Assembly (NCBI GenBank): GCA_019747735.1
Contig: JAIEQL010000014.1
Span: 73,013 to 137,012 of the forward strand
Reading direction: 5' to 3'
Origin: Chthoniobacterales bacterium
GTDB taxonomy: Bacteria > Verrucomicrobiota > Verrucomicrobiia > Chthoniobacterales > UBA6821
DNA length: 64,000 nucleotides
Positions 1 to 61,270 of this stretch are shown here, in pieces. Made by a program: the position numbers and the translations under genes. Every line of letters starts with the position of its first letter. Within the stretch, counting starts at the first letter, position 1. The notes below the pieces were generated by a model. That model ran no database searches and was not told the DNA's origin. It saw only the letters and a list, made by a program, of their open reading frames with translations.

Positions 1-3000
1 CGCTTTTAGTTGCTCCCATGCGCGTGAGCGCGATGATGGAAGCGGACAAAAAAAAGGAGCGTAAAGAGTCGGGTGGTTCTAAAGAAACTCTCAAAAAGAA
101 CACCGACGAAAAGTGGTCTGAGGCCCATGAAAAAACAGCTGAAAGAGTTAACAATCCTGCGGCTAATAACAACACAGAGACTGAGGGTGAGATGTTTATT
201 GAGAAGAAAGAGATCATCGAGGGTGAGGCTCTGCAATCGTTTCCCAATGCTGATGCTAGGCTGAACTTGTCAGAATCTCACGCTGATGAAGAAAGCGACG
301 ATAACTCTCTTTTAAATATAGCGACCTTGGAACAAAGAATCCAAGAGGCTCGGGAGATCATTGCTGATTTGGGTGGAAAAGGAACAGCGATTTCAGAAGA
401 AGAACTCTGCGATCTTTTTAAAAAATGGTCAGAGCGAAACGAGCGTTACCAAAGAGAATTGCAGTCAAGTGATCTTGAGCATAGAAACGATATTGGACTA
501 ATTGCAAAACAGCAAATCGAAGATCGGCTAACAGAGCTTGTACAGGCTTCCGGCAAGGCTGTGGAGGCGCTTCAACAAAGCTTAGAGAACTTTACTCGAA
601 ATAACGCAACGCGTGCTGGTAATCCCAGCTGTTTGAAAGATTCACAGCGCTGGTTTATCGAAAAGAAAACAGCTCCAGTAGCAGAGGCTGTGTTAGACGA
701 ACAACAACAACCATATTTTCTAGAATGTCTTGCACGCGTAGTCACAAGGGCCTCACTCAAAGAAGATCCTCACTATGCTCTCGCAGAGGTCCTCTGGGAC
801 GAACGAGAACAAGCATGGGAAAAACATCATGAATACTACAAACTCAAGCAACAAAAAAAGAACGCCTTAATTATCGCCCAAGAAAAAGCCAAACAAGCCC
901 TTGAAGTAGATGAAAAGAGAGATGAGACACAGCTTGGTCAATTTAAACAGAAACTAGAACAAGTGGCCCAAGCACTCCACTACGTTCCCGAACCACATAC
1001 CCAGCTCCTTGCGACAGGAATGGACACAGCAGCTTCTGCGGTTGATTGGATCAACTTCATCTGGACAAAGCACAGACTCCACCAAGTAAGAGCAGACGAA
1101 AATGAGGCAATTAAAGCTCACCAAAAAGCAAAAGAGGCGGCTAAAGGTGCCACCATCAATATCACTGGGAATCAGCCTGAAGAGACTGAGAAGAGACTGC
1201 TTGAGCAAGAAAAAGAAACCACAAAACAACTAGCCAATGGGCTAAGACCTCAAGCAGGTTGGGGAGAACATGCATGGGAAAGCTGGAGCAATCGACTGCT
1301 AGGAGATCTTTCCTATGATGAGAAAAGAGACTTTATTCGACAGGGCCAAGAGAGCCAAAAAAGCCGAGGCTGGATCGTAGAGCAAAGTGCCACGGCTTGG
1401 AAAGACCGACAGAACGAATCCAAAAAACAACTAGAACTCCTTACTCGCGAAAACAAAAAAGTGATTGCCTCACTTGAGACGGCTCATCATCGCTTAGAAA
1501 AAAACCTCCAAGAAAAAGTTAAAAAAAGCGAAAATCAACGGGATCTTTTTCAAGAAGCACATGCTAAAGCAATAAAATATAAAAAACGCATCGAAACCTT
1601 CTTGGAAGAATATTCTCAAGAGCAAAGCAAAGAATGGAACCAGCGAAAAATTGATCAAGCCCAAGAAACTTTTCGAAGTGATTTTAACAACCTCATTGAC
1701 AACTACAGGTGGATAGGAAAACACGAAGCAAGTTGGAACGAGTCTCTAGAGCTTCAAGGGCAGGCAATACTCGAGGCTAAGAAAACCTCCCAAAAACACG
1801 AATCAACGTTTAAAAAATACCAACGTCTTCTCCATCGCGCAGAGAGGCAGTTAGAAAACGACCAAGAACAACTTCGACAAGTCTGGCCCGAGTACGATAC
1901 CACCTTTCGTCCCTACTTGGCATGGGAACTCCCTTTTCATGAAGAAACCATCTCCGCCTCCATACCAGTAAAAACTACTTTCAAAAAAAGTGGCATCATC
2001 GAACCTCCCGTTATTCCTAAAGAAGAACGGGAAGTAAAAGGACGCCATTTGCTCTATCAGTTTCAACGAGCTATAGAAAAAGAACTCAATTTTTCTTTAA
2101 TTGCTCCTTTAGGGCTTCAAGAAGAGGGCGAACAAATTTCTCCTTCCAAAACAGAAACCATCTCCTCTTCCAAGAGCGATATAAAAAGCGAAACAAGCGA
2201 AGAGAGAACACTCTCCCCTTATGAAGCGCTTCTAGTCTGGAGCAGAGAGCAAGTGAATAAACCCTCTATTGCTGATAGACAACGTTGGAAAGCACGCAAG
2301 CAATTTGAAGAAGCGCATCAAGAAACGAGAAAACTTTTTCGACTTTTAGAAGAGCGTAAAAACTATCTAGTAGAAGAACAAGGAGCATCAAGAACTCTTA
2401 AAGGAGAGTTCAACAAATCAGATAAAGGAAACGCTTCAGCTGAAAATTTGAAACTTACCCCAGAAGCATTGGCCTCCCATGCCAAGCAATACCGTCTTGT
2501 AACGCAAAAAGAAGATAAACCTTTAGCAGAAGTAGCAACCAATGCTTCCTGGAGAACAAAGTTCACAGAAAAAACGCGCTCCTTTTTTAGTCGCTTTACA
2601 ACAAGCACTGGAACCGTTTTTGAAAACCGCTCCTTAACAGTGGCCTCCATTGAACTACAAATCCAACAAGCACTCCCTATTGAAAAAAAAGCTGAAGAGC
2701 GATGGTTAACCTTGATGAACCATGCAGAAGTAGCTCGCTCTGCTCGAGAGAAAAACTCACTGGGCACTCCAAAACAGATAGAAAAAATCTGGGCAGAAGC
2801 AGATCATGCGGCTCTTAAAAAACAGCAAGAAGCAGAAGGTCTTCTTCAAGAAAAAAGAGAGGCCGATGCAATGCAAACGCATTGGGACGAAAGCAACCTG
2901 CGCTGGAGAGCTCTTGCTGAAGAAATCCAAGCAGGCAAAGAAGGAAGAGCACCAGCACTATTGTGGGACCACTACGCACAACAACAGGCAAGTATCCTCA

Positions 3001-5648
3001 CGGCTCAAAAAAAAGGAGGAACAGCCCTCACTGGCGCTCTAGAAAAACTAAAAGCCTTTGATGAAGCTGTCCTAACACGCTGGCATCAACTTCAAAGCCC
3101 CAAAGCAATTGATACTCCAGAAGAAGACTACCTCAATCAACTCAGCCTCACTCTTAATAAAAAAGGAGAAGAGATTTTTAAAACAGCCGTGACGTGTGAA
3201 CTAGGAATTAAAAAATATAAACAACTTACCAAACAAGAAGCACTCCGAGCCGCAAGAGAAAACACTCCAAAAGCAGCCGAGGCTTGGAAAGAACGCATTC
3301 GAGACAACCAAGAAAAAATAGAGACATGGGAAAAGAAATGTGCTGATGACATAACTTCCAAACAAGAAACCTCAGAAACAAGAAACATTCGAGACCTTCT
3401 CCCACAACTACGAGGAATCCTGGAAGCCGATCAAAAAGCTCAATCACTTTTTGAAGAAGAAGAAAGACGCCTCAGCCGCATTGAGAAAATTTGGAAAAGC
3501 ATCCAAGAGGCAAAAGAAAAAGCAACCTTCCAAAAAGCCCAAGAGGCCGCTCTACGCTACCATCAAGGAGATCGAAGGTCCTGGGAAGAAGAACTGACCG
3601 AAGAAGAACGCCAGGCTTACAACAACCACCTCGATAAAAAAAATCAATCGTATGACCAAAAACTAGCTAATGAAGAGAGAGAGCTAGAACAAACCCGTCA
3701 AATCCTCGAAGAGAAACAGCAAAAAACAGAACGATTTCTTTCTCGTCTTGTAGGAGGAATTACAGGGCAACAGCAGGCAACACTAGATGCCATCAGGGAG
3801 GCACAAGAACATTATGATAGAGGCTATCAACAATGGGCTGAACAAAAAGAAGAACTCCAATGGGGAAGTTTTGAAACAGCGGAAGAATATCAAAAAGCAA
3901 TAGCTCAAAAACGTCAGGAAATTACTACACGAGAGAAAAGAAAAAACGAAAAAATATTTTTAAACGTTGTTAGCTCTGTGTTAGCAGAAGGTGCTCCACT
4001 GTTTGCAGAAGAAGGGACATTTGTTCGAGCTGCATATGATAATGCGGTCAAGTATTGGAACAATTCTGCTCAAAGGAGGTTGTCTGGAAAAACGGGGAGC
4101 TGGTTTTGGACAGTAGCAGCCTTTAACAATCTTAATAATAGACTCAAGGGAAAAGAGGGAGTCTCTGCAGCGTATCAACAAAATCTTGTTAAGTACATTT
4201 TGGACCTGGTCATTGCTTATGAAAAAGCTGCCAAGCAAGAGAAAGCTGCTCAATTCCAGATAGCAGATTCTTATCACAAAGCAATTTTTTCGTACTATGG
4301 AGCAATCGAAAACGAAAGAGAGGCCTTTGTCTCATCAGAAGAGGGAGAGAACGAGTTAGCACAGTATGAAAGACAGCTTTCCTCTTATCAAAATAGTCTG
4401 GGAGATGTCTATTTCCAAATGGCCAGACAAGCAGCGAAAAATCCGCAACACGTTGAAAACTACCGTCAAGCCATCCCTTTTTATAAGCAAGCAATAGAGA
4501 ATGAAGAGGCTGCGATAACTTCATTTCAAGCAGGAGAGAAGAAGCTAGCAGAGCATCAAGAAGCTCTTTCTGTGTTACAACAGGCTCTTGGAGAGACTTA
4601 TTGGCTTGCAGCACGTGAAGAAGCAACAGGAAATCTGTATCACGCAGAAAATTATCGCCCAGCCATTTTTTTATATGAGCAAGCAATAGAGAGTTACAAA
4701 GCTGCGATAGTCTTCTTTCATGCGGGGGAGAAAGAACTAGCAAAGTATCAAAAAGATCTTTCTGATTCTCAACGTAAGGTGGGATCTGAATATTTCACTG
4801 CAGCATTTCTAGGAGCAGGAGATAATATGCAGAATGCAAAAAACACTCTTAAAGAGATCCCTCGTCTTGAACAGTTGGTGGAAAATCGAAAGCAACTTGT
4901 CAATTATCAACATAATCTAAGAAATGCCAATTGCTCTGCAATCGAGCAAGAAGCAGCAGGGAAGCCTCAGTTTGCAGTTGGTTATCGCCAAGCGGTTCCT
5001 TTTTTTACACAAGCAATAGAGAGCACAAAAGCTGCCATAGACTCATCCTACGGGAATGAAAGCAAAAGAGAACTAGCAGAGTATCAAGGATTGCTTTCTA
5101 CTTGTTATAACTATGAGGGATGTAGCCATCATTGGAATGTTTATTATCAAGTTAAAGAAAAACCTCCACTAGCTTCTTTAGCCTTAGAGATAGGTTCTTT
5201 TTCTAAGAATGCTGTCACCAATCAAGAGGCTGTTTTAGCTTTTTGGAGTCAGGCTGAATTAGCTGCTCCTTGGGATCGAGGAAAGCTGCGAGCATTGGCA
5301 TCTATACAACAAGAGAAGACACTCTTTATTTTACTCAAGGTAAATACATGGCGCTGGGAAATAGTTCGCCAAGATCAGAGTGAGACAAAAGTTCCTGATT
5401 CTAGAAAAGAAGAAGAGGCAAGATTAAGTGAAGTTGTCGCTCTTTATGATCAGCTTTTTTCTGCTTACCAAAAAGCACCTTGGGAGCTTTCTACCAAAGA
5501 GAGGGAACGAACCACATTATTGAGTAAAGCCTGGAAAACTTATAATGAGGCCATAGAGCGTCTTGGTGAAAACAGAACAGAGGAAGCTCTGCAATTAAAG
5601 CGCGAGGTTGAAGAATACCTCCGAGCTGTTCTACTGAATTATCCTTAA
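1..5648 (+). CDS. giant secreted K/E/Q/W-rich alpha-helical repeat protein, paralog 1 (5' end cut by window edge)
   Basis: The open frame continues upstream of the listed Met: nt 3-17 read LLVAP before MRVSAMM, matching the signal-peptide ends of the ORFs at 37445..40300 and 40539..44312. Shares their N-terminal module. No recognisable catalytic domain. Confidence 0.8.
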   Translation, partial: LLVAPMRVSAMMEADKKKERKESGGSKETLKKNTDEKWSEAHEKTAERVNNPAANNNTETEGEMFIEKKEIIEGEALQSFPNADARLNLSESHADEESDDNSLLNIATLEQRIQEAREIIADLGGKGTAISEEELCDLFKKWSERNERYQRELQSSDLEHRNDIGLIAKQQIEDRLTELVQASGKAVEALQQSLENFTRNNATRAGNPSCLKDSQRWFIEKKTAPVAEAVLDEQQQPYFLECLARVVTRASLKEDPHYALAEVLWDEREQAWEKHHEYYKLKQQKKNALIIAQEKAKQALEVDEKRDETQLGQFKQKLEQVAQALHYVPEPHTQLLATGMDTAASAVDWINFIWTKHRLHQVRADENEAIKAHQKAKEAAKGATINITGNQPEETEKRLLEQEKETTKQLANGLRPQAGWGEHAWESWSNRLLGDLSYDEKRDFIRQGQESQKSRGWIVEQSATAWKDRQNESKKQLELLTRENKKVIASLETAHHRLEKNLQEKVKKSENQRDLFQEAHAKAIKYKKRIETFLEEYSQEQSKEWNQRKIDQAQETFRSDFNNLIDNYRWIGKHEASWNESLELQGQAILEAKKTSQKHESTFKKYQRLLHRAERQLENDQEQLRQVWPEYDTTFRPYLAWELPFHEETISASIPVKTTFKKSGIIEPPVIPKEEREVKGRHLLYQFQRAIEKELNFSLIAPLGLQEEGEQISPSKTETISSSKSDIKSETSEERTLSPYEALLVWSREQVNKPSIADRQRWKARKQFEEAHQETRKLFRLLEERKNYLVEEQGASRTLKGEFNKSDKGNASAENLKLTPEALASHAKQYRLVTQKEDKPLAEVATNASWRTKFTEKTRSFFSRFTTSTGTVFENRSLTVASIELQIQQALPIEKKAEERWLTLMNHAEVARSAREKNSLGTPKQIEKIWAEADHAALKKQQEAEGLLQEKREADAMQTHWDESNLRWRALAEEIQAGKEGRAPALLWDHYAQQQASILTAQKKGGTALTGALEKLKAFDEAVLTRWHQLQSPKAIDTPEEDYLNQLSLTLNKKGEEIFKTAVTCELGIKKYKQLTKQEALRAARENTPKAAEAWKERIRDNQEKIETWEKKCADDITSKQETSETRNIRDLLPQLRGILEADQKAQSLFEEEERRLSRIEKIWKSIQEAKEKATFQKAQEAALRYHQGDRRSWEEELTEEERQAYNNHLDKKNQSYDQKLANEERELEQTRQILEEKQQKTERFLSRLVGGITGQQQATLDAIREAQEHYDRGYQQWAEQKEELQWGSFETAEEYQKAIAQKRQEITTREKRKNEKIFLNVVSSVLAEGAPLFAEEGTFVRAAYDNAVKYWNNSAQRRLSGKTGSWFWTVAAFNNLNNRLKGKEGVSAAYQQNLVKYILDLVIAYEKAAKQEKAAQFQIADSYHKAIFSYYGAIENEREAFVSSEEGENELAQYERQLSSYQNSLGDVYFQMARQAAKNPQHVENYRQAIPFYKQAIENEEAAITSFQAGEKKLAEHQEALSVLQQALGETYWLAAREEATGNLYHAENYRPAIFLYEQAIESYKAAIVFFHAGEKELAKYQKDLSDSQRKVGSEYFTAAFLGAGDNMQNAKNTLKEIPRLEQLVENRKQLVNYQHNLRNANCSAIEQEAAGKPQFAVGYRQAVPFFTQAIESTKAAIDSSYGNESKRELAEYQGLLSTCYNYEGCSHHWNVYYQVKEKPPLASLALEIGSFSKNAVTNQEAVLAFWSQAELAAPWDRGKLRALASIQQEKTLFILLKVNTWRWEIVRQDQSETKVPDSRKEEEARLSEVVALYDQLFSAYQKAPWELSTKERERTTLLSKAWKTYNEAIERLGENRTEEALQLKREVEEYLRAVLLNYP

Positions 5649-16987: not shown

Positions 16988-17641
16988 ATGCCTTGCAAAA
17001 TAAAAACTTCCGTTGGAATAGCTCTTGGTTCTAACCTTGGAAAACGAGAAGAAATTCTTAATAAAGCTATTCAAGAGCTTCGAAAAATACATACTAGCCC
17101 GACTTTCGCTATCCGAGATGGCGATCTTCTGCAATATACTCAGCCTCAAAACGATCTTTTAAACCGCTTATGTGTGACACACACACCGCACGATTTTAAA
17201 AATCATTTTGAAACCAAGTCTTCACAAAATATCATCCACCCGAATAGCGAAAGTCGGGCTAAATCAGATTGCTCTTTTTTGGTTTCTTCCTTTTACAAAA
17301 CGGACCCAATCAACTGCCCACCTAACTCACCTTATTTTATAAATGCCGTTGTCCAATTAGAGACAACCCACCCCCCACTCCTTCTTTTAAAACTACTTCA
17401 AGAATTAGAAATAGATTCGGGGCGCCCTGCCCTTCGTGAAAAGAATACTCCAAGGACTCTAGATCTTGATTTACTTTATTACGGATCTACTATTCTTGCC
17501 ACTCCTGAATTAGAACTGCCCCACCCAAGAATCCATGAACGCCTTTTTGTTCTCGAGCCACTTGCTGAAATCTGTCCTGATCTCAAGCTTCCAACGTGGG
17601 ATAAAACAGTAAATGAATATTTACTTTTTATTAAAAAATAA
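16988..17641 (+). CDS. folK: HPPK (2-amino-4-hydroxy-6-hydroxymethyldihydropteridine diphosphokinase) carrying a 55-codon in-frame repeat insertion
   Basis: IALGSNLG...SSFYKTDP...PRTLDLDLL...LPHPR..ER.FVL.PL are HPPK motifs. The protein is about 55 aa longer than the ~160 aa norm, and the extra segment coincides with repeat element B1. Confidence 0.85.
   Translation: MPCKIKTSVGIALGSNLGKREEILNKAIQELRKIHTSPTFAIRDGDLLQYTQPQNDLLNRLCVTHTPHDFKNHFETKSSQNIIHPNSESRAKSDCSFLVSSFYKTDPINCPPNSPYFINAVVQLETTHPPLLLLKLLQELEIDSGRPALREKNTPRTLDLDLLYYGSTILATPELELPHPRIHERLFVLEPLAEICPDLKLPTWDKTVNEYLLFIKK
17095..17261 (-). mobile_element. family B palindromic element (MITE-like) inserted in frame in folK
   Basis: Terminal inverted repeats tagcccgactttcgctatccg (17095-17115) and cgaatagcgaaagtcgggcta (17241-17261), 20/21 complementary. 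TA flanks both ends. Body 17097-17259 is 163 nt; with one TA that is 165 nt, or 55 codons. The core is homologous to 48219-48340 in reverse orientation. Confidence 0.8.
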
Positions 17642-17660: not shown

Positions 17661-18431
17661 ATGAAAGAAAAAAATATAAATATCTTTTTTAAAAAAGTAA
17701 AATCTTCCAAGGAAAAAATAGCCTGCCTTACCGCCTATGACTATCCCTCAGCTCGTATTTTAGAAGAAACTGGCATCGATCTTATTTTAGTGGGTGACTC
17801 TTTAGGGATGGTTGTTTTAGGCCATCCTAATACAACAGAGGTAACCTTAGGCGATATAGAGTACCATCTTAAAGCTGTACGGCGGGCAGTTTCTAATAGC
17901 ATTCTTGTTGCTGACTTACCAATGGGAACCACAGATAGCGTGGAAAAAGCAGTAGAATCCTCCCTGCGTCTCCAAGCTGCTGGTGCTGAGATGGTAAAAC
18001 TTGAAGGCGCATTAACATCTCAAATTGCTGCCATTGTCGCCGCCGGAGTGCCTGTTATTGCTCATTTGGGAATGCTTTGTCAACAAATACTTACAGAAAA
18101 AAAATATCGCATCAAAGGAAAAACCTCAGAAGAAGCTACACGTATTTTAAAAGAGGCACATTCCGTTGAAAAAGCAGGCGCAAGCGCTCTTGTCTTGGAG
18201 TTAGTAACTCCTTCTTTAGCACAGCAAATTACTAATGAACTAACAATCCCAACCATTGGAATTGGTAGCGGCTCTCATTGTGATGGGCAAATTTTAGTAT
18301 TAAGTGACCTTTTAGGCCTTCAGCCTTGGTTTCGCCCTTCTTTTGTAAAACCCAAAGCTGATTTAGCAACTCCTTTTAAACAAGCTGTTAAAGAATATAT
18401 TAGTGAAATAAAAACCAGTCATGGAGAGTAA
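17661..18431 (+). CDS. panB: 3-methyl-2-oxobutanoate hydroxymethyltransferase
   Basis: LTAYDYP.A......GID.ILVGDSLGMV..G, KLEG and IGIG.G..CDGQ.LV motifs. Confidence 0.92.
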   Translation: MKEKNINIFFKKVKSSKEKIACLTAYDYPSARILEETGIDLILVGDSLGMVVLGHPNTTEVTLGDIEYHLKAVRRAVSNSILVADLPMGTTDSVEKAVESSLRLQAAGAEMVKLEGALTSQIAAIVAAGVPVIAHLGMLCQQILTEKKYRIKGKTSEEATRILKEAHSVEKAGASALVLELVTPSLAQQITNELTIPTIGIGSGSHCDGQILVLSDLLGLQPWFRPSFVKPKADLATPFKQAVKEYISEIKTSHGE

Positions 18432-19317
18432 GCTCAAAATAAAAGCAGCTTCTGGACAACGAGTCATCCTTGCTGGTGCCATTCTTAATTTACTATTAGG
18501 AATTATCAAGAGTACCGCGGGGTTACTAGGACACTCCAATGTTCTTCTAGCTGATGGTATTGATTCCATGGTTGATGTCTTTAGTTCTTTAATGACATGG
18601 GGAGCACTGAAATATGCAGTAAAGCCACCCGATGAAGATCATCCTTATGGCCATGGAAAAGTAGAGTCATTAGCTGCTGCTGCTGGTAGTTTGCTTCTTC
18701 TTAGTGTTGGTATTATCATTGCTGCCTTCAGTATCCAGCAACTCATAGCCGTTGCTCATGGTCATCTTCCCCATCGCCCAAGAGCTTATACATTAGTTAT
18801 TTTAATAGGAGTTATTGTTATCAAAGAAATACTCTTTCAACTAATAGCACGCCGTGCACGCTTCATTAAAAGCACAGCAATGTTAGCAGATGCTTGGCAC
18901 CATCGTTCTGATGCAATTATTTCCTTCACAGCATTTTTAGGGATCACCCTCTCTTTATTTGCCGGTAGCGGATATGAGGCTGCCGATGACTGGGCGGCTC
19001 TGATTGCTTGTGGCATCATTTTTTATAATGCATTAGCAATACTCAAAACATCACTCTCTGAAATCATGGATGAGAGAGTTTCTGATACTTTAGAAAATAC
19101 TATTATTAAACTTGCTTGTGAAGTCAATGGTGTTCGAAGTGCTGAAAAGTGCCGCGTGCGCAAAAGCGGATTGGCTCTTATTGCTGACCTTCATATTCGT
19201 GTTGATAAAAATCTGACAGTAAAAGAAGGACACGCCATCTCTCACCATGTTAAAAATTATCTTTTAGATGCTAACTTAGCATTGGAAGATATCACCCTCC
19301 ATTTAGAGCCAGACTAA
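18421..19317 (+). CDS. cation diffusion facilitator (CDF) family metal efflux transporter
   Basis: Six predicted TM segments, DS..D and H..SD motifs, and a C-terminal cytoplasmic domain ending HLEP. Confidence 0.85.
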   Translation: MESKLKIKAASGQRVILAGAILNLLLGIIKSTAGLLGHSNVLLADGIDSMVDVFSSLMTWGALKYAVKPPDEDHPYGHGKVESLAAAAGSLLLLSVGIIIAAFSIQQLIAVAHGHLPHRPRAYTLVILIGVIVIKEILFQLIARRARFIKSTAMLADAWHHRSDAIISFTAFLGITLSLFAGSGYEAADDWAALIACGIIFYNALAILKTSLSEIMDERVSDTLENTIIKLACEVNGVRSAEKCRVRKSGLALIADLHIRVDKNLTVKEGHAISHHVKNYLLDANLALEDITLHLEPD

Positions 19318-20981
19318 AGAGGCGTTAGTTTTATTTTTTCGAACCCTTCGATTTCCTGATGAGAGACAATGAAAATACCACTCTTACTTAGACTCTTAGT
19401 TACAAGCTTAAAAATTGCTATCGAAGACTCTTTATGAAGTTGAGCTATTGGCTCATCCATAAACAACCACTTTGGTTGATGTAGTAGAATACGAACAAAA
19501 TTAATACGTTGTTGTTCTCCTAAGGAAAGTCTGTTTTGATAATCATGAACCTCATCTAACAAAGGAATAAGATGATCCAGTTGAGTCTGCTTCATTAAAA
19601 AAATTATTTGCTCTGGATCCATAAGTCCTAGCGAAGGATAAGAAATACATTCGCGGAGTGTTCCAATAGGCATGTAAGGCCTTTGTGGTATAATCATGGT
19701 ATCTTTATTAATCGAGATTTCTCCTCCATCAACATAAGGGTAAATACCAGAGATGACTCGCAAAAAACTGGTCTTTCCCGTTCCTGAAGGGGCCATAAGT
19801 ACCTTACGATCTCCTATTTTTAAAACAACTTCAGGAGAAGTCCATATCTTCTTCTGTTGAGGTGTTCTAATAGTTAATGAGGGAATATGCAATTTTTCTT
19901 CCTCTTTTGGTAAATAAGTTACCTGATAGTTATCTTTTTCCATTAAGGTATTAAAAGCAATCAACCGCTGAAGAGAAGCAATCCCTCCTGCTATTGTTTG
20001 AAACTGGAGTACTATGGAGGATAAGGAATTCTTAACCTGAAAGAATATTTGCTGTATCTGCATTAATACTCCCATAGTAATTAATGACTTAAAGTAAAGA
20101 GGTCCTACTAAAAAAAGAGGAACAAACATGCTTGCATTCATATAAAAGTTATCAAAGAAATTAATATAAATCTGCCGCTTTAAGACTTCATAATAGTTCC
20201 TTGTCAGAGCTCCAAATGTCTCTTGAAGACCAAGCAGCTCCGCTTCTTCTCCACTTAAAGTAGCTATCTCTTCTCGTCGTTCAAAGATCCGCATTAAGCG
20301 ATAACGAAAATCAGCCTCTTTTTTTTCTTGAAGCCGATTGAGATCAATAATAGGACCACCTATTTTAAAAATAACAACTGTCCCTATTAAAGAATAAGCA
20401 ATAGCAGCCCAGACAAGAAGTCCTGGAAAAGTTAAGTTATGACTCCCTAGTTTAAAAACAAAAGCTCTCGATAAATTCCATAAAATAATGGCAAACGTGA
20501 TAAAATTAACTCCATCTCTAAAAAAAGCTAAAAAGAGATCTATTGCTGTGTAACAAACCACGGAGATATCTTGAGCAATACGCTGATCAGGATTATCCAC
20601 CTCCTTTTTTTGAAGAGATATTTTATAAAAGTTTTTGTGAGAGAGCCACTTCTTTTGGAGCTGTTCAGTACCCCAGCGACGCCAACGAAAACTAAGCCAA
20701 GCTGTAAGATAAGTTCTGGAACAAAAGTCAAATAATAGAATAGAAACTAACGGAACAAAAACACAAACTTCATGAATGAAGGTTGCTAGGTCCTTTTTTT
20801 CGATAGCATTATAAAAATAGCGTGACCAATCAGTAAAAATTACAGCGATGTAAACAGAAATCAAACTCATCACAAGAAGAGCAATAAGTCCTCCCCATGC
20901 AATTTTCTTTTCTTGAGACTGCCACCAAGGAAAGATATATCTTTTTAAAATATTATAAATGGCACCAAGTTTATTAATCAT
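19314..20981 (-). CDS. fused ABC permease/ATPase of the SbmA/BacA-YddA type
   Basis: 555 aa with an N-terminal TM domain, Walker A (APSGTGKTS), signature LSLGEQQR and Walker B (LFMDE). Its stop overlaps the CDF stop in the sequence CTAA. Confidence 0.8.
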
Positions 20982-24532: not shown

Positions 24533-24623
24533 GATGGAGAGTTTAGGAAGTTAAAAGCTTTAGAAAAAAAGGAAGACCTCGAATTAAGAAAGGTGCAAAC
24601 ATTGTGTCGCTATAAGGAGTAAA

Positions 24624-24763
24624 GAGTCTAATTCAAATGCGCTGCTGAGGATGCAGGACAAGGAACGAGGAGCACAGACCCGCAGTGTATATGGAAATAC
24701 TCGAGGAGGCGAGCACCGAAGTGACGCAGTCCTGCGCCTTAGCAGTAGCATTTGGATAGACTC
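24624..24763 (+). repeat. family A palindromic element, copy A1 (own arm type)
   Basis: Arms gagtctaattcaaatgcgctgctg / cagcagtagcatttggatagactc flank a core that is about 59/69 identical to A2 by hand alignment. Its right end overlaps the ahcY stop codon. Confidence 0.8.
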
Positions 24764-26178
24764 TAGTACCGATAATGCTCCGGCTTATAAGGTCCTTCGA
24801 CCGACACACCCAGATAAGTAGCTTGTTCAGCAGTTAAACGGGTAAGTTTCACTCCAATTTTTTCTAAATGAAGACGAGCAACTTCTTCGTCCAATTTTTT
24901 TGGCAAAACATGAACGATCGGCTGATAGCTTTCACGATTTTTCCAAAGCTCTATCTGAGCCAACACCTGGTTGCTAAAGCTGTTGCTCATCACAAAGCTC
25001 GGATGTCCTGTAGCACAACCAAGATTGACAAGACGACCTTCCGCAAGAAGAAAAATTTCATGTCCCTGTGGAAAGGTGAATTTATCAACCTGTGGCTTAA
25101 TAGTTGTTCTCTCAATTCCAGGAAAAGCGAGTAATTGATCGACTTCAATCTCGTTATCAAAATGCCCAATGTTGCAGACAATAGCTTGGTCTTTCATTTT
25201 TTTCATATGCTCCAGCGTGATGACGCCGACATTTCCGGTTGTGGTCACATAGATATCACCACGGGCCAAAGTCTCTTCGATTGTTGTTACCTCATACCCT
25301 TCCATGGCTGCTTGGAGAGCGTTAATCGGATCAATCTCGGTTATGATCACACGAGCTCCCTGCCCACGTAATGATTGAGCACATCCTTTTCCGACATCGC
25401 CATAGCCACAGATGACAGCAACCTTTCCAGAAATCATCACATCCATTGCACGGTTGAGCGCATCCACAAGGGAGTGACGGCATCCGTAGAGATTATCAAA
25501 TTTACTTTTGGTAACAGAGTCATTGACGTTGAACGCTGGAACCAAAAGTTTTCCTTGTTCCTGGAGTTTGTAGAGGCGGTGAACGCCAGTGGTTGTTTCC
25601 TCAGAAACACCCTTCCAATCTTTGGCAATTTCATGCCAACGCCGTGGGTTTTCTGCATAAATTTTTTTCAAAAGATCTTTGATTACCTGTTCTTCATGGT
25701 TGCTGGAAGGGCTATCCACCCATTTGTCCCCCTCCTCCAGCTCATATCCTTTATGAAGCAAAAGGGTAACATCACCGCCATCATCAACTACGAGCTCTGG
25801 TCCTTGACCACTTGCATGAGAAACAGCCTGATAAGTGCACCACCAATATTCTTCAAGGCTTTCGCCTTTCCAAGCAAAGACAGGAACTCCTGTCACCGCA
25901 ATGGCTGCTGCTGCATGATCTTGCGTAGAAAAAATATTACAGCTTGCCCAACGAACGCTGGCACCAAGTTCTGTCAGCGTTTCAATCAAGACTGCTGTTT
26001 GGACGGTCATGTGAAGAGAGCCCGTAATGCGCACGCCAGCAAGCGGTTTTTCTTGAGCATACTTTTTTCGAATACTCATGAGGCCCGGCATTTCTTGCTC
26101 GGCAATGAGAATTTCTTTACGTCCCCATTCGGCAAGGGAAAGGTCGGCTACTTTATAATCAATATTCTTGTTCATCAT
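24763..26178 (-). CDS. ahcY: adenosylhomocysteinase
   Basis: 471 aa; [18 protein letters not shown]-binding GYGDVGKG and C-terminal PYKPEHYRY. Confidence 0.95.
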
Positions 26179-29942: not shown

Positions 29943-30045
29943 CTTTTTCCTTAAGACTGTGTTCTCATCCTTCAGGTTCTCTTTGGATAGCCTAGAGGGT
30001 GTCTTGAAAATGAATAAAATGGCTGTAGTTTTATTTAAAATGCTC
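29943..30045. repeat. mosaic of short repeat modules W-Z-X-Y with no core
   Basis: W ctttttccttaagac recurs reverse-complemented at 61381. Z ctcatccttcagRttMtctttggatagcc recurs at 61336. X gagggtgtcttgaaaatgaataaaat is the A2/A4 left arm. Y ggctgtagttttatttaaaatgctc recurs at 44783-44808. Confidence 0.75.
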
Positions 30046-31363
30046 TAATGAATTCCAATGCCTCTTCTTTCGTCGTGATGAGGTTTTCTAACTGTGCATC
30101 CTTCACCCTTGTTAAAATTTTTCCAAACTTTGGCCCTGGTTGCATTCCTAAATCAATCAAATCTTGCCCGGTAACAAGCGGTGTTGGAATGAGTGGGGTC
30201 GCAGCAAACTCTTCTTTTTTCTGCTGAAGCAATTCGTAGTTATCCAGCATTCCATGGCTCGAGGCACAATCGACACGATGGAGTTCGAGCTCCTCTTCAA
30301 AGGTAGGTCGGGCCATCATGCGACGCAATGTTGAGAGGCGCATCTGAGTCACATCTTTAAAACTCATATGCAAGCGCACAGAAGGTACCACCCTGTCGAT
30401 GAGATCATTTGAAAAGCGAAGCCGCTGCAAGAGTCGTTGTGCCATGGTCGCTCCAAGTTGGTCATGCCCATAAAAGCTCATCTTTCCTGCCTCATTGACC
30501 TTACGCGTAGCAGGCTTGCCTATGTCATGAAAAAGAACAGAAAGAACCAGCGACAGCGAAACTTTTTTTGGAAGCATACTCAACATGAGGCGTGTATGAA
30601 CAAAGACATCTCCCTCAGGATGAAATTGGGGTGGTTGCTCACATCCCTTGAGATTTTCTATCTCTGGAAGAATTTTTTTTAACAATCCACTTTGATCGAG
30701 AAGATCAAAGCCGCGGAGACGTTGAGGACTTAAGAAAATTTTTTGTAGTTCATCTCGAATACGTTCAGCACTGACACAAAGAATCTCTGGAGCCATCTGG
30801 CAAAGAGCTTTCCAGGTCATTGGCTCTATTTTAAAATCGAGTGTTGTTGCAAAGCGAATGGCACGAAGGAGTCTCAATTTGTCTTCTTGAAAGCGCTTCA
30901 AAGGATTGCCAATAGCACAAATAATTTTTTGATCTAGATCCTCACGCCCATGCACATAATCAAAAACAGTTTTTGTAATCGGATCATAAAACAAGCCATT
31001 GATCGTGAAATCACGCCTCTTGGCATCTTCCTCTGCATTGGTAAAAGTAACTTCGGCAGGGTGGCGTCCATCCTGGTAGGTTCCATCATGGCGAAAGGTT
31101 GCCACTTGAATTTCCACCTCTTTTTTTTCCTCACTTTTTTCTAAAACAATCACGACTCCAAACTGTGCTCCCACTGGGATAGTGCGTGGAAAAAGTTTTT
31201 CAATTTCCTCAGGAAGCGCATTGGTCGCGATGTCGTAGTCATGTGGCTCCAATCCAAGAAGATGATCACGGACACACCCTCCTGCAAAGAAGGCTTCATG
31301 ACCAACTTCACGCAATTTTTTAAGAACATTGTAGGCAGCAGAAAAAACAGAAGAGCTATTCAC
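30035..31363 (-). CDS. cca: CCA-adding tRNA nucleotidyltransferase with HD domain
   Basis: GG.VRD..LG....D.D, RD.T.N and HD domain (FHDIGKP) motifs. Apparent GTG start. The last codons (..RAF*) lie inside repeat module Y. Confidence 0.88.
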   Translation of the reverse strand: MNSSSVFSAAYNVLKKLREVGHEAFFAGGCVRDHLLGLEPHDYDIATNALPEEIEKLFPRTIPVGAQFGVVIVLEKSEEKKEVEIQVATFRHDGTYQDGRHPAEVTFTNAEEDAKRRDFTINGLFYDPITKTVFDYVHGREDLDQKIICAIGNPLKRFQEDKLRLLRAIRFATTLDFKIEPMTWKALCQMAPEILCVSAERIRDELQKIFLSPQRLRGFDLLDQSGLLKKILPEIENLKGCEQPPQFHPEGDVFVHTRLMLSMLPKKVSLSLVLSVLFHDIGKPATRKVNEAGKMSFYGHDQLGATMAQRLLQRLRFSNDLIDRVVPSVRLHMSFKDVTQMRLSTLRRMMARPTFEEELELHRVDCASSHGMLDNYELLQQKKEEFAATPLIPTPLVTGQDLIDLGMQPGPKFGKILTRVKDAQLENLITTKEEALEFIRAF

Positions 31364-31385
31364 AGGGATAGAAGCGATGAGTAAA

Positions 31386-31479
31386 GGTGGCAGGATTTCA
31401 GGAAGCAGGTTACAGGCTATAAGTAAGGCCTAAAGGCAAGATTCATGAAAAAATTTCCTGCAATCTGTAACCTGCCACC
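31386..31479. repeat. long imperfect hairpin built from oligonucleotide words (ggtggcagg / caggttacag and their complements)
   Basis: ggtggcagg (31386-94) pairs with cctgccacc (31471-79). caggttacag (31406-15) pairs with ctgtaacctg (31465-74). Lies between the comM stop and the cca start. Confidence 0.7.
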
Positions 31480-31494
31480 TGAAACCCTGCAAAC

Positions 31495-33030
31495 TTATTT
31501 CCAAATTCTCCGATCTAGAGTCCGATAACTCAAGGCCTCCAAAAGATGTTCCTCTTCGATAGGAGCACTTTTGGCAAGGTCAGCGATGGTTCGAGCGACT
31601 TTTAAAATACGATCGTAGGCACGAGCACTAAAATGAAGTTCGTTGATGGCTTTTTTTAAAAGCTCATTGCCATTGGGACTCAGCTGACAATGTTGGCGAA
31701 GTTCAGTCGGTGTCATCCGAGCATTGCAAGTCGTTCTCTTTTTTTTAGAAAAGCGCTCTTGCTGTAGAACACGTGCGGCTATGACGCGTTCACGAATAAG
31801 TGCTGAAGATTCCCCTAGCTGCTTCTGGGAAAGCTCTTTGTAGGCTATTGCAGGTGCCTCGACATGAAGATCGATACGATCCAGCAAGGGTCCCGAAATA
31901 CGTTGACGATAACGCTCCAGTTGCAGAGGAGTGCAACGACATTCGCGTTTAGCATCCCCATAATAGCCGCAAGGACAGGGATTCATCGCAGCTACCAACA
32001 TAAAAGAGGCTGGAAAGGTCATGGTTCCTGCCGCCCGAGAGATAGTAACTTTGGCATCTTCTAATGGCTGGCGTAATACTTCCAGTGTTGATCGTCGAAA
32101 CTCCGGAAGCTCATCGAGAAAAAGAACTCCATGATGCGCAACGCTGATTTCTCCAGGCGTAATGTTGGTAGAACCACCGAGCAGTCCGACATCTGAAATC
32201 GTGTGATGAGGATCACGAAAAGGGCGTTGAGTCACTATTGGCTCTCCAGGGCTAAGGACGCCACAAACACTATGAACCTTCGTTGTTTCTAAAGCCTCCT
32301 CCAAAGAGAGGGGGGGCATGATAGTGGGAATACGACGCGCCATCATCGACTTTCCAGAACCAGGCGGTCCGATAAGCAAAATATTGTGGCCACCAGCAAC
32401 AGCGACTTCAATCGCTCGCTTGACCTGCTGTTGTCCTTTGATCTCCGAAAAATCAAGGTCAAACACTAACTGTTGCTTGAGGAGTAAGGCAGGATCTTCT
32501 TTTTCTGCAGAAAGTTCTTTTTGCATCGAAAGAAATTCATAGGCCTCACGCAAAGTGGCAATGCCATATACCTCGATCCCCTCCACTACTGCGGCCTCTC
32601 GTGTGTTGGCGACTGGAAGGAGGACGGCTTTTTTTCCTCGAGCTCGGGCTTCAAGGGTAAGTGGAAGAGCCCCTTTGATCGGACGCACCTCCCCAGTCAA
32701 AGCCAATTCTCCTGCAATATAGCAACGATCTAGGCGTGGCAGCTGCGCCGATTTAGCCAAAGCAATCATCCCAATGGCAATGGGTAGATCAAAATTAGGC
32801 CCTTGTTTTTTGATATCAGCGGGAGCCAAGTTCACCGTCGTGCGCGTACGCGGCCACTCATAACCGCTATTACTCACTGCCGCAATCACTCTGTCCTTAC
32901 TCTCCCGAACGATTGCATCAGGAAGCCCAACCACGATGATAGCAGGATCGCCTGACCCTGTATGGATTTCAATTTCTACCTCAGTGGCATCGATCCCAAT
33001 AACAGCAGCAGAAAAAACTTTAATGAGCAT
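31495..33030 (-). CDS. comM: Mg-chelatase-like AAA+ protein YifB/ComM
   Basis: 511 aa with an N-terminal Lon-protease-like domain, Walker [17 protein letters not shown], and a Cys cluster PCPCGY. Confidence 0.9.
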
Positions 33031-33514: not shown

Positions 33515-34375
33515 ATGAACACCTCAACTGAAAACCATGACTCTAGCTTACAACGCTACATGCAAGATATAGCTCAATATCCCCTGCTCTCTCTAGAAAG
33601 AGAAAACGAGTTGGCAGCACTCATTAAAACTGGAGATAAAAAAGCCATTGCCGAAATGGTACGTTGTAATTTGCGTCTTGTAGTTAAAATTGCACGTGAA
33701 TATGCCAATTTTGGGGTGCCACTGCTTGACCTTATTTCTGAGGGAAACATTGGGCTTATGAAAGCAGTCAAACGTTTTGATCCTTCCAAAGGCAGCAAGC
33801 TGAGCACCTATTCTTCTTGGTGGATTAAGCAGGCCATCAAACGGGCCTTGGCCAATCAAGGTAAAACAGTGCGGCTTCCTATTCACCTTTTGGAAAAAGT
33901 TGCCAAAGTCCGCCGTGTTAATGACAGCTTGAATGAGTTTCTAGGACGTGAAGCAACCCATGAAGAAATTTCAGAAGAGATTGGAATTTCTGTTGAAAAG
34001 ATCGCTCAATTAAAATTAGCCTCTGGTTCCACTACCTCTCTTGATGCTCCTGTAAGCGAAGAAAGCTCCACCAAATTTTCAGACATGTTGAGTGACTCCA
34101 AAGCTCTCAATCCTTTTGATGAACTAGATCAAAAAGATCTCCAAGATTCCCTGCAGGAAATGATTGGAGGACTCACTCTGCGAGAACGTGAAGTCATCAA
34201 TAATCGTTTTGGATTAAACGGGGAAGAGCCCATTACTCTTGAAGAAGTAGGAAGCAAAATGGGCGTCACACGAGAACGTATTCGCCAATTACAAAACGTA
34301 GCTCTTAGCAAAATGCGCCAAGCTTTTCAAAAAAAGGAACAGATTAGATTTTATCCTGAGGTAGTGTTGGCTTAG
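33515..34375 (+). CDS. RNA polymerase sigma-70 family factor (short RpoD/RpoS-like)
   Basis: Region 2 (DLISEGNIGLMKAVKRFD...STYSSWWIKQAI), region 3 (VRLPIHLLEK) and region 4.2 (TLEEVG..MGVTRERIRQLQ). The TAG stop is formed at the junction with repeat A2. Confidence 0.9.
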   Translation: MNTSTENHDSSLQRYMQDIAQYPLLSLERENELAALIKTGDKKAIAEMVRCNLRLVVKIAREYANFGVPLLDLISEGNIGLMKAVKRFDPSKGSKLSTYSSWWIKQAIKRALANQGKTVRLPIHLLEKVAKVRRVNDSLNEFLGREATHEEISEEIGISVEKIAQLKLASGSTTSLDAPVSEESSTKFSDMLSDSKALNPFDELDQKDLQDSLQEMIGGLTLREREVINNRFGLNGEEPITLEEVGSKMGVTRERIRQLQNVALSKMRQAFQKKEQIRFYPEVVLA

Positions 34376-34515
34376 AGAGTGTCTTGAAAATGAATAAAAT
34401 TGATGCAGTACCAGGAGCGAAGCGCACAGACCCGCAGTGTATATGGACATACTCGAGGACGCGAGCACTGGAGCGACGCCGTAATGCGCAATTTTAGTCT
34501 TTTCAAGACACCCTC
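34375..34515 (+). repeat. family A palindromic element, copy A2
   Basis: 141 nt with ~38-nt imperfect arms gagagtgtcttgaaaatgaataaaattg... / ...caattttagtcttttcaagacaccctc. TTA lies on both sides (34372-74 and 34516-18). Nearly identical to A4. Confidence 0.88.
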
Positions 34516-36057
34516 TTAACCAGCCTTCGAATATTTGCGAACGGGACCTTTGCTAAAGTTTTTTTTAGCAAAACTTCCGCTCCTCTCCCCGCCTCGCCGA
34601 GCATCACCACGAAGACCTTGACTACCGCGGCCTTCTCTATCTCGACTGCGCCCTCCTCCTTCTCTTCCACCTTTGTAATTTTTGCTACGTGCGAAATGGG
34701 CATCTTCTGAATCACGATCTCGTGAGTTTGTTGATTTTTCTTTAGCTGGAAGTGAGGGAACATCTGAACAAGAGCCTAGCAAGAGCGAGAAAAGAGCTGA
34801 GGAAATATCAGTTGAGTTATGACCTGCTTCTAAAAGGCGATCCATGATAACATCATGCTTTTTAAAAGAAGCAGTTTCGAGCGTCTTAACAAGTTTCGCA
34901 TAAAGTAACTCAGCCCGCTTTCCTTCAACCTCTCCAACTGTAGGAATAACGCCTCGATGAATTTTTGTTTTGGTATAACGCTCAATAAATTGAAGTTTAT
35001 AAATGTCACGACCACTGACAAAAGTTACTGCCATTCCCTTTTTTCCAGCGCGGCCTGTACGACCAATACGATGCACATAATCTTCGGGATCGTAGGGCAA
35101 GTCGTAATTGACAACGAGCTCTAGATTATCGACATCAATACCACGCCCTGCGACATCAGTCGCCACGAGAAATTCGAATTCCGAATTTTTGAATTTGTTC
35201 ATCACTCGCGTGCGCTGCGCCTGTGGAATCCCTCCATGCAAACGATCTGTTGAAAAACCCTGGGCAAGCAATGCATCAGCCAACTCATCGACCATCCGTT
35301 GTGTGTTGCAAAAAATAATACCGAGCTTGTAACCATGAAAATCAATCAAGCGAATGAACGCTTCCGTTTTCATACGCGGTGGAACTTCATAAAACCATTG
35401 CTCTACCGTTGGCACCGTGAGTTCTTTTTGCTCAATTTTCACCATCTGAGGATGGCGTGAAAAACGATTAATCAAGTCGCGAATCGGCTTAGAGAGGGTC
35501 GCTGAAAAGAAAATGGTCTGGCGTTCTTGAGGCGTACTCTCAAGAATTTTTTGAATATCATCACGAAAACCCATATCGAGCATCCGATCAGCTTCATCAA
35601 GAATGACCATTTTCAATTGGTTCAATTTTAGAGTGCCACGCTCTAAGTGATCAATAAGACGTCCTGGCGTTCCAATGACAATTTGAACTCCTTTTTTGAG
35701 TTCGAATAATTGTCGGTCATAGGAAGCACCTCCATAAATAGGAACGCAATGAATAGAGCGTTTAAAAGCAGTCAACTTATAAACTTCGTCTGCTACTTGA
35801 GTTGCCAGCTCGCGTGTGGGACAGAGAATAAGAATTTGCACAGCTGTAATGGCAGGATCAATTTTTTCAATCGCTGGGATGGCATAAGCCGCTGTCTTGC
35901 CAGAACCTGTTTGAGACTGCCCTACCACATCAACACCTGACATCAAAATGGGGATTGCTGCGGTCTGAATCGGGGAAGCTTCCTCAAAACCGAGCTGAGC
36001 TACTGCCTTAATAATTTCTTGGGAGACTCCAAGAGCCTCAAAGGTACGTTTTTCCAT
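34516..36057 (-). CDS. DEAD-box ATP-dependent RNA helicase with an RG-rich C-terminal tail
   Basis: Q motif, GSGKT, DEAD, SAT and HRIGRTGRAG motifs. The tail reads GGREGGGRSRDREGRGSQGLRGDARRGG. Confidence 0.92.
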   Translation of the reverse strand: MEKRTFEALGVSQEIIKAVAQLGFEEASPIQTAAIPILMSGVDVVGQSQTGSGKTAAYAIPAIEKIDPAITAVQILILCPTRELATQVADEVYKLTAFKRSIHCVPIYGGASYDRQLFELKKGVQIVIGTPGRLIDHLERGTLKLNQLKMVILDEADRMLDMGFRDDIQKILESTPQERQTIFFSATLSKPIRDLINRFSRHPQMVKIEQKELTVPTVEQWFYEVPPRMKTEAFIRLIDFHGYKLGIIFCNTQRMVDELADALLAQGFSTDRLHGGIPQAQRTRVMNKFKNSEFEFLVATDVAGRGIDVDNLELVVNYDLPYDPEDYVHRIGRTGRAGKKGMAVTFVSGRDIYKLQFIERYTKTKIHRGVIPTVGEVEGKRAELLYAKLVKTLETASFKKHDVIMDRLLEAGHNSTDISSALFSLLLGSCSDVPSLPAKEKSTNSRDRDSEDAHFARSKNYKGGREGGGRSRDREGRGSQGLRGDARRGGERSGSFAKKNFSKGPVRKYSKAG

Positions 36058-40388: not shown

Positions 40389-40560
40389 TATAATATAGTC
40401 AAATTACTTAGAAATTACATGAAAGAACGCAGAGATTTTTAGAAAAGGCAAGGCCGAAGAGCGAGCGCTATATCTTATAACGGGAGTAATGAGAACGCAG
40501 TCTTTTCCTGAAAAGATCACGTCAATTTTGTGTAATTTCTAAGTAATTTGACTATTATGA
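40389..40560. repeat. 172-nt palindromic element (family D; arms ataata(ta)gtcaaattacttagaaattaca)
   Basis: Arms of about 30 nt at 40389-40419 and 40531-40560 are complementary apart from a 2-nt indel. The right arm encodes the last ~8 codons and the stop of the 1257-aa ORF. Confidence 0.8.
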
Positions 40561-44312: not shown

Positions 44313-44637
44313 TGTTGGTTTTTTAGAGTTGGTTGGATTTTTCTAGAAAATTAGAGCGATAACAAATAGCAAAAATTTACTTCAACTTCAACTTCAACTC
44401 ATCTCTATTTTTCTAGTGAGCATCATGACTTACAACGCTTTTAATAAGATCACTTCTTACAAATCAATCACTAAAATTAACGCATATAGTTAAAAAAGAC
44501 TTTGACAAACACACTGATTAATATCTATTATTTCCTATCTGAGAGTTGAAAAACTCATCCAGTGTAAGACAACATACTTCCCCCCTACCTAGGAAAAACC
44601 AATTCTTGTTCCCCCCAAGAACATCACTATTGGGCTA

Positions 44638-44777
44638 GAGCATATTAAAAAATTCTGTAGCCGCTTCATTGCGTCGTCGCTTCGGTGCTCGCTCCATCGA
44701 GTATTGGCTATACACTCCCTCGCTGTGCGCCTCAGCTCCTGGCACTGCATCGACTACAAAAAATTTTAATGATGCTC
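44638..44777 (-). repeat. family A palindromic element, copy A3 (inverted core, Y-type arms)
   Basis: Arms gagcatattaaaaaattctgtag / ctacaaaaaattttaatgatgctc. The core is the reverse complement of the A2/A4 core with scattered substitutions. TA flanks both ends. Confidence 0.8.
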
Positions 44778-44811
44778 TAAGATGGCTGTAGTTTTATTTA
44801 AAATGCTCTAA

Positions 44812-44952
44812 GAGGGTGTCTTGAAAATGAATAAAATTGATGCAGTATCAGGAGCGAAGCGCACAGACCCGCAGTGTATATGGACATACTCGAGGACGCG
44901 AGCACTGGAGCGACGCCGTAATGCGCAATTTTAGTCTTTTCAAGACACCCTC
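44812..44952 (+). repeat. family A palindromic element, copy A4
   Basis: Differs from A2 at 2 positions by hand comparison. TAA flanks both sides (44809-11 and 44953-55). Preceded by a solo Y arm at 44783-44808. Confidence 0.88.
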
Positions 44953-48097: not shown

Positions 48098-48197
48098 GCT
48101 AAAAAGTTAGTGATGGTAAACAAAAATGGTGAGAAATCAAGAGGTTAAGGGCTATGATCCCTTTTTTTTTACCTATTAAAGAAATCCAGAAAGAAAT

Positions 48198-48360
48198 TAG
48201 CCCAAGTTCCCCAGTTAAGGTGGATGATATTTTGTAACGACTTGGTCTGAAGGTGGTTTTTAAAAGCATGAGGTGTATGTTTCATACATAAGTGATTTGA
48301 ACAAATTAATGTCCAAGGCATTACGAAAGATCACCATTCGCAACTGCGGAACTGGGGTTA
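48198..48360 (+). repeat. family B palindromic element, intergenic copy B2
   Basis: Arms tagcccaagttccccagtt / aactgcggaactggggtta are 16/19 complementary and include a TA at each end. The core gtggatgatattttgt..gacttggt..ttttaaaa..ggtgt..acataag is homologous to the folK insert. Confidence 0.8.
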
Positions 48361-60790: not shown

Positions 60791-60841
60791 AAGGGACTTT
60801 TCTCATTGCACAAGCAAAGGCACCTGCTTACTAATAGTCCC

Positions 60842-61266: not shown

Positions 61267-61270
61267 TAAC

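Follow-up and report, generated by a model that had tools for sequence, protein, structure and literature searches.

The 64,000-nt stretch of Chthoniobacterales DNA analyzed here (the window; G+C approximately 42%) contains a convergent pair of genes, encoding a sigma-70-family factor and a DEAD-box RNA helicase, whose entire spacer is a single 141-nt palindromic element that we call family A. Its own sequence, its predicted folds and its repeat copies elsewhere identify it as a transposable element of the miniature inverted-repeat kind (MITE). The features of the locus are as follows.

33515..34375, + strand: sigma-70-family gene, 286 amino acids (aa), with regions 1.2, 2, 3 and 4 and a native C-terminus ...EVVLA
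34372..34374: left TTA of a 3-bp target duplication, whose TA forms the sigma stop TAG (34373-34375) together with the first G of the element
34375..34515, core orientation on the + strand: family-A MITE, 141 nt, a single long imperfect hairpin
34375..34390, + strand: left terminal inverted repeat (TIR), GAGAGTGTCTTGAAAA
34425..34456, + strand: conserved apical core CACAG-N6-AGTGTATA-N5-ATACTCGA, common to all subfamilies
34500..34515, - strand: right TIR, TTTTCAAGACACCCTC (reverse complement GAGGGTGTCTTGAAAA)
34516..34518: right TTA of the target duplication, which is the helicase stop TAA on the - strand
34516..36057, - strand: DEAD-box RNA helicase gene, 513 aa, with the C-terminal motif KGPVRKYSKA

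An earlier reading of this DNA, made without database searches (the sequence-only reading), had claimed that the palindrome fills the sigma/helicase gap exactly; the coordinates and both open reading frame (ORF) ends agree, leaving zero extra bases, and the TTA on both flanks and the composition of the sigma TAG and helicase TAA can be read directly as it described them. The two TIRs are complementary at 15 of 16 positions. The form typical of the family is GAGGGTGTCTTGAAA (16-17 nt), from which this copy departs by carrying A instead of G at the fourth base. Hairpins are predicted on both strands, at -57.9 kcal/mol (z -5.5) and -64.3 kcal/mol (z -6.6), with a stability matched by none of 200 shuffles. 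No ORF within the element matches a transposase. Searching the whole window against Rfam 15 at the gathering score returned nothing relevant to the element, and at E <=10 the single match at the element locus was a chance microRNA.

The sigma TAG borrows its G from the very start of the element, stop codons lie on both flanks, and TAA and TGA are found among the triplets duplicated at other copies. These facts lend themselves to the explanation offered by the sequence-only reading, in which the insertion gave the sigma gene a new stop and an altered C-terminus and the family targets stop codons. We consider this explanation very improbable. Deleting the element and one TTA in silico produces ...TTG GCT TAA CCA GCC..., which encodes an identical 286-aa sigma factor and an identical 513-aa helicase; the expectation that the sigma frame would then read on into the helicase 3′ end is wrong, because the removal leaves GCT TAA at the same codon. 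Deleting the element alone adds one Tyr to the sigma factor. The C-terminal alanine is invariant in 13 of 13 sigma relatives (61-87% identity), which end mostly in ...LA or ...FA, and the stop lies at the same codon in all four relatives whose DNA was read (at our loci L001, GCT TAG; L002, GCT TAG; L082, GCC TGA; and L083, GCT TAA). The empty-site reconstruction, the alanine and the stop codon of the relatives all contradict a reshaped C-terminus, and by these sequence comparisons ...EVVLA is the native end of the protein. An unchanged sigma end and stop position in relatives without the element is the very outcome by which the sequence-only reading had proposed to refute itself. On the other side of the element, the KGPVRKYSKA tail recurs in a helicase homologue at L045, which ends three residues past the motif versus one in the window protein.

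Our account of the locus, which we hold with good confidence, is that a non-autonomous MITE related to an IS5-family insertion sequence (IS) was inserted at the TTA of overlapping convergent stops and left both proteins unchanged. Before insertion, the sigma and helicase genes would have converged with their stops overlapping in TTAA (...GCT TAA on the + strand; TTA, read as TAA, on the - strand), and the unoccupied junction is predicted to be ...GGCTTAACC.... The related IS makes TNA (3-bp) or TA (2-bp) duplications when it inserts, and a 3-bp duplication at this TTA would have left a TTA on each side. The right TTA would have stayed the helicase stop, and the left TTA with the G of the element would have generated TAG at the codon of the old sigma TAA. 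Both proteins would be unchanged because the 3-bp duplication rebuilt both stops, which is probably why the insertion was tolerated here. Element and duplication together come to 144 nt, a length divisible by three, and the same is true of its relatives. A present-day example of the stop overlap proposed for the pre-insertion pair is found in the same window, where the convergent ORFs 18421..19317 (+) and 19314..20981 (-) overlap at CTAA (19314-19317), which provides a TAA stop on one strand and a TAG stop on the other. The anatomy, the family, the matching IS ends, the duplication statistics and the native protein ends are observed, and the empty-site sequence, mobilization in trans and any present-day role are the parts of this model that we infer.

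A metagenome scan for both family-A TIRs yielded 22 loci and, with the window and L035 included, 22 non-redundant copies; flanks were tabulated from related genomes and metagenomes in place of the source genome. Identical 3-mers flank 14 of the 22 copies (TTA in eight, TAA in four and TGA in two), compared with 6.5 expected from permuted right flanks (p ~1e-5), which bears out the proposed 3-bp T-N-A duplication. A pure 2-bp TA duplication for all copies was considered and is ruled out by the TGA/TGA and TTA/TTA flanks. The accompanying proposal of stop-codon targeting fails for family A, as the sigma/helicase copy is the only one of 22 to abut host stops; unexpectedly, targeting does hold for sister subfamilies, in the stop-docked copies described below. 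The other family-A copies adjoin other repeats or are separated by 7-150 nt from the closest end of a gene, and show no orientation preference relative to genes. The family is dispersed: the window contains two full copies plus a remnant, and 20 further distinct loci lie elsewhere. Additionally, family-A MITEs and the related IS repeatedly adjoin B-type termini (..ATGCTCTA / TAGAGCAT..) or sit within TATAGTGTAT repeats (L084, L085, L088, L092, L093, L096, L097, L099, L107 and L108), which suggests nesting or a preferred composite target.

The family-A TIR GAGGGTGTCTTGAAA is identical to the ends of IS5-family ISs at three metagenome loci.

L107, 1009-1950: IS with TIR GAGGGTGTCTTGAAAtt, ~942 bp
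L109, 733-1686: IS with TIR GAGGGTGTCTTGAAAtt, ~954 bp
L095 (the same locus as L104), 191-1243: IS with TIR GAGGGTGTCTTGAAAtt, 1,053 bp

The L107 and L109 copies, from freshwater metagenomes, are canonical ISs of ~942-954 bp with ends GAGGGTGTCTTGAAATT, and in all three units an A-run links two ORFs. Read as one protein, these give a transposase that matches NCBIfam NF033580 (IS5 family transposase) with 217 bits over positions 2-258 of 258 and also Pfam DUF4096 and DDE_Tnp_1. More diverged related ISs are found at L106 and L110. The L095 unit has a complete family-A MITE as its right end and is flanked as a whole by TAA/TAA; its orfB stop TAG consists of TTA plus the G of the family-A element, the same construction as the sigma stop. 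Within the IS5 family, the termini of the IS1031 group are GAG, and insertion of the IS427 group produces repeats of 2-4 bp. Judged from these matches, family A is a MITE whose ends correspond to those of an IS5-family IS of the two-ORF, frameshifted kind, putatively IS427/IS1031-like, and we infer that it is mobilized in trans by an IS5-type transposase and that such an IS is present in this organism. The IS1031 group is reported to prefer 5′-TNA-3′ and to make a 3-bp repeat (PMC12016507), and relatives in the PIF/Harbinger-IS5 superfamily make duplications of 0, 2 or 3 bp (PMC12730594).

These termini and flanks also bear on whether the element moves by a DDE transposase at all. It could instead be a single-stranded DNA mover, similar to REP/RAYT (repetitive extragenic palindromes and their associated tyrosine transposases) or IS200/IS605, or a structured RNA gene, with the TNA being part of the palindrome. 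Such an origin would fit the orientation bias of sister subfamilies relative to genes (26 versus 6, p 5e-4), which symmetric cut-and-paste movement does not predict, and the conserved CAGTAGA (GTAG) near one end in most subfamilies; for TTA/TAA, moreover, a direct repeat is not always distinguishable from an inverted one. The TGA/TGA flanks (L035, L094), however, are direct and not palindromic, the TIRs are identical to those of a DDE-type IS, and the L095 composite of IS and MITE has TAA/TAA flanks. Family A itself lacks the orientation bias and has no Rfam match. At 141 nt, with TIRs and duplications and without GTAG, the copy at 34375-34515 far exceeds the length of a REP and does not resemble a REP/RAYT element. 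We therefore judge a non-DDE origin improbable and retain the IS5-related MITE as the preferred reading.

Several observations nevertheless weigh against insertion of an IS5-related MITE at overlapping stops. Eight of the 22 family-A copies have no 3-bp match and share TA only (NTA on the left, TAN on the right). The flanks of full-length ISs are mixed (TAA/TAA, TAA/TAG, TTA/TAC, ATA/TAG and TAT/TAT), with TAA/TAA occurring once and the remainder being TA-only or TAT; the MITE copies mostly fit TNA. The 64-kb window has no transposase gene, and among the collected element loci a transposase is found in L095/L104 only. Relatives compared at the junction, with sigma factors of 87, 79, 74 and 73% identity, include no empty sigma/helicase site. 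The 87% relative (L001) is the closest and alone among them keeps the gene pair; its spacer measures 335 nt and its helicase ends in a different tail. Lacking an empty site for comparison, we reconstruct the ancestral TTAA overlap.

Logan contigs from four drinking-water metagenome runs, compared with the junction, contain no joint that bypasses the element, and it is present in six of six Logan contigs with this exact sigma gene, all of which enter the element and break there. Across positions 33900-35000 in runs X1-X8, summed word depth reaches ~8,300 in the element versus 13-14 in the flanks, which means that related repeats are very abundant in drinking-water communities; in one metagenome, element depth is up to ~600 times flank depth. 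Drinking-water samples with 12-39% of the words of the locus would represent sister populations.

With the element in place, each of the two converging mRNAs would carry a terminal 141-nt hairpin that could block 3′ exonucleases or read-through. This copy could have been co-opted as a bidirectional transcription barrier or 3′-end stabilizer, a possibility compatible with the insertion model and one that we regard as rather unlikely, though less so than the other alternatives weighed here. The element is the sole sequence between the two genes, would form a very stable hairpin in both transcripts and is found in all contigs sampled from this population. Compensatory changes maintain the hairpin across its superfamily, and hairpins of MITEs have a known influence on mRNA stability (PMC3733652, PMC10969869). 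However, the sequences that come after the stem, CTTAACCAGCC (+ strand) and CTAAGCCAAC (- strand), provide no U-tract, and an intrinsic terminator scan of both strands of 34375-34515 found no terminator-like site. Another convergent pair in the window, with stops overlapping at CTAA, has no hairpin, and a need for pairing during transposition would produce covariation as well. Each TIR contains a promoter-like match (9/12), but these do not exceed background. The copy at 34375-34515 is an ordinary and probably neutral insertion, best read as a chance TNA insertion at the sole harmless point between abutting genes, and it can be accounted for without a function.

Family A belongs to a larger superfamily. 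The core CACAG-N6-AGTGTATA-N4/5-ATACTCGA is present at 73 or more loci, nearly all in seven metagenome-assembled genomes of Chthoniobacterales or other Verrucomicrobia from lakes and other waters, and occurs four times in the window versus 0 expected. Superfamily elements are 139-152 nt long, with an inner ~110 nt in common and varied terminal inverted-repeat modules that include TAGACTTCTTTCC, CTAGTGCGTTGG, GGAGTTCTTGCAG, AAACTGCCTCAG, GAACCTGTATTC, TAGAGCAT and others. In 30 aligned representatives, 94.6% of cells are paired and 36 of 51 pairs show double changes. The covariation score is 0.471; shuffles gave 0.143, with none of 500 reaching the observed value, and slid partners gave no more than 0.092. 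The G.U pairs at columns 23-131, 34-121 and 71-82 of this alignment (A2) show little or no variation, being kept in 26-30 of 30 sequences, and AAGGAG in the left arm (columns 42-47) is nearly invariant. The core orientation folds more stably in 39 of 45 copies; the window copy, which folds better in the helicase sense, is among the six exceptions.

Members of the AGAC/GGAG subfamilies are exactly 144 nt long and have 3-bp A-N-T direct flanks. Length and duplication add up to a multiple of three for these subfamilies (144+3) and for family A (141+3), so that an insertion keeps the downstream reading frame. Open frames within the elements are enriched over shuffles. For the CTAG subfamily, a 4-bp CTAG duplication is a candidate. 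A search for pairs of IS size among the solo TIRs of other subfamilies was negative. The window contains the following further members and remnants.

24623..24764: member of another subfamily, with ends AGAGTCTA... and without matching flanks, its right terminus overlapped by the adenosylhomocysteinase stop
29996..30048: short chimeric remnant, with a family-A left end and a B-type right end
44636..44779: B-type member, with ends TAGAGCAT...ATGCTCTA and the core inverted
44812..44952: another family-A copy, with 97% identity and TAA/TAA flanks, abutting a partial B-type end at 44782-44811

The copy at 24623-24764 had been put forward as flanked by TA, which turns out to be an unclean case: it belongs to a different subfamily, with different termini and no matching flanks. 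The adenosylhomocysteinase gene beside it (24763..26178, - strand) has a TAG stop at 24763-24765 that overlaps the last two bases of the element. The B-type member, the partial B end and the second family-A copy make up a repeat cluster at 44636-44952, and TAAGATGGCTGTAGTTTTATTTAAAATGCTCTAA of this cluster recurs at 30015-30048. A 442-aa ORF (30035..31363, - strand) takes its last ~3 codons and TAA stop from the remnant at 29996-30048; this type of ORF is matched by Pfam at L076 as PolyA_pol/CCA-adding-like, and the C-terminus of the window ORF may really be element-derived.

Placement relative to genes was analyzed for 45 non-redundant complete copies (loci L003-L075 and the window copies at 24623-24764 and 34375-34515). 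In 19 of these, the stop of an ORF of at least 100 codons lies in the right terminus or no more than 25 nt inside it, and for 16 it lies within ~8 nt. Stops at the left terminus are seen in two copies, the sigma one among them, versus the 19 on the right (p 2e-4). The availability of stop triplets was ruled out as a cause of this orientation bias, as both termini carry the same triplets. The stop-docked copies sit at housekeeping genes, and the C-termini of the encoded proteins are native: FabH, YchF, FabF, Prs, RadC and a class I aldolase end within 1-2 positions of model and protein ends, and the adenosylhomocysteinase of the window (AhcY) covers TIGR00936 from 1 to 416 of 416 and runs 8 residues beyond.

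A further 11 of the 45 copies lie in frame inside long ORFs, essential genes among them, adding ~49 aa. The in-frame copies are of the TAGACTTC, GGAC/GGAG and GAACCTGT subfamilies, and in-frame loci are L045, L005, L006, L007, L012, L015, L022, L031, L034, L036, L041, L043 and L066. For example, the element at ~4452-4604 (+) of L045 lies inside an ffh ORF (3947-5467), and the alignment of this Ffh with that of B. subtilis (7o5b) breaks exactly at the element into two blocks, with ~50 extra residues. Three other in-frame hosts are presumably UvrA-, IspG- and UppS-like, going by sequence motifs. In an exhaustive profile search, the element peptide turned up in at least 76 protein clusters, many of them long proteins with an internal match; one MiaB-family and one ABC ATPase cluster match their family models in two stretches. 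All named proteins among the 76 clusters are from Chthoniobacterales or other Verrucomicrobia and none from Rickettsia. A word-indexed protein search with the peptide profile gave 11 small ORFs and nothing more, and plasmid DNA and protein searches for a link to the Rickettsia palindromic elements (RPE) gave no matches.

A link to RPE is raised by the peptides themselves. One peptide read in the core orientation of a sister subfamily (e.g. RPLSKSAYADEEQGATAHRGGVYKEILDDSSTGATQLFAAEVESGKRS) matches the NCBIfam RPE1 domain TIGR01045 over positions 1-48 of 48 (E 3.3e-7, 30.2 bits, cutoff 30), and no other model in a set of 18,950 families. Of ten further peptides, taken from other subfamilies, seven match the same model near-colinearly, with E values of 6e-4 to 0.16 and 12-20 bits, under the cutoff of 30; the window copy is one of the seven and, once its three stops are masked, reaches 19.5 bits (E 7e-4). 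The matching peptides are from L022, L012, L059, L020, L016, L003, L040 and the window element at 34375-34515. This threshold-level similarity suggests distant homology or convergence of coding palindromes. Like RPE-1 of Rickettsia, the present elements are palindromes of ~140-150 bp, and the sister subfamilies lie in frame in housekeeping genes (PMC10969869, PMC3733652). Unlike RPE-1, they are hosted by free-living Verrucomicrobia of freshwater, groundwater and drinking water, and they have a matching transposase-bearing IS and clear target duplications. The window copy and family A are also intergenic, with the RPE1-like frame of the window copy closed by three stops.

Other known repeats share particular traits with the element. 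MITEs derived from IS5-family ISs (IS1031/IS427 groups) are small, have 16-17-nt TIRs identical to those of an IS, lack a transposase, occur in many copies with TNA/TA duplications, and cluster and nest with other repeats (PMC12016507; PMC12730594); the Tourist MITEs of PIF/Harbinger are the eukaryotic counterpart. In contrast to these, the interior of family A is no deletion derivative of the IS, with which it has just the first ~16 nt in common, and is instead a hairpin module common to subfamilies with other termini. QMITE1 and QMITE2 of Coxiella burnetii similarly overlap gene 3′ ends by a few bases or extend them, and have a conserved core with variable ends (PMC5896051), whereas QMITE2 has 7-11-nt duplications and a GTAG REP targeted by IS1111, and lacks an IS5-type partner or TNA duplication. 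The Correia/NEMIS, ERIC, RUP, BOX and SPRITE repeats are likewise intergenic, co-transcribed, stable hairpins that can alter mRNA fate (PMC3733652, PMC10969869). They have no Rfam sequence relation to the present element, and their effects are documented by experiment, whereas any effect of the present element would be hypothetical.

Elsewhere in the window, a bacterial RNase P RNA of class A (Rfam RF00010, 200 bits) is located at 60840-61268. Further inverted repeats at 40395-40555, 10453-10570, 31384-31496 and 17095-17261 (the last related to 48197-48301) have 28-37-nt arms that are 78-93% complementary and spacers of 49-101 nt, and may be further hairpin repeat families. Diverged direct repeats at 4429-5046, which start 192 and 330 nt apart and are 72-73% identical, lie inside the ORF 18..5648 (+), which probably encodes a repeat-domain protein.

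The single copy between the sigma and helicase genes is of little weight in itself; it shows how a 3-bp TNA duplication admits a transposon between abutting genes with both proteins intact. The superfamily is the more useful result and deserves separate study. We offer tentatively, as a possibility that we would not yet favor, that it constitutes an undescribed RPE-like superfamily in free-living Verrucomicrobia, with a core that is possibly homologous to RPE-1, insertions that preserve frame and either dock on native stops in one preferred orientation or lie in frame inside essential genes, and perhaps mobilization by IS5-type transposases. If this is true, the movement and tolerance of RPE-type 'protein-coding palindromes' would become directly testable. 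On a practical level, short-read assemblies are interrupted by these repeats where genes end, and gene callers can go wrong on C-termini. With a matching IS5-type transposase for one subfamily, the superfamily would provide a tractable RPE-like system outside obligate intracellular bacteria, in which RPE-like movement, tolerance within proteins and conservation of the hairpin are the questions to pursue.

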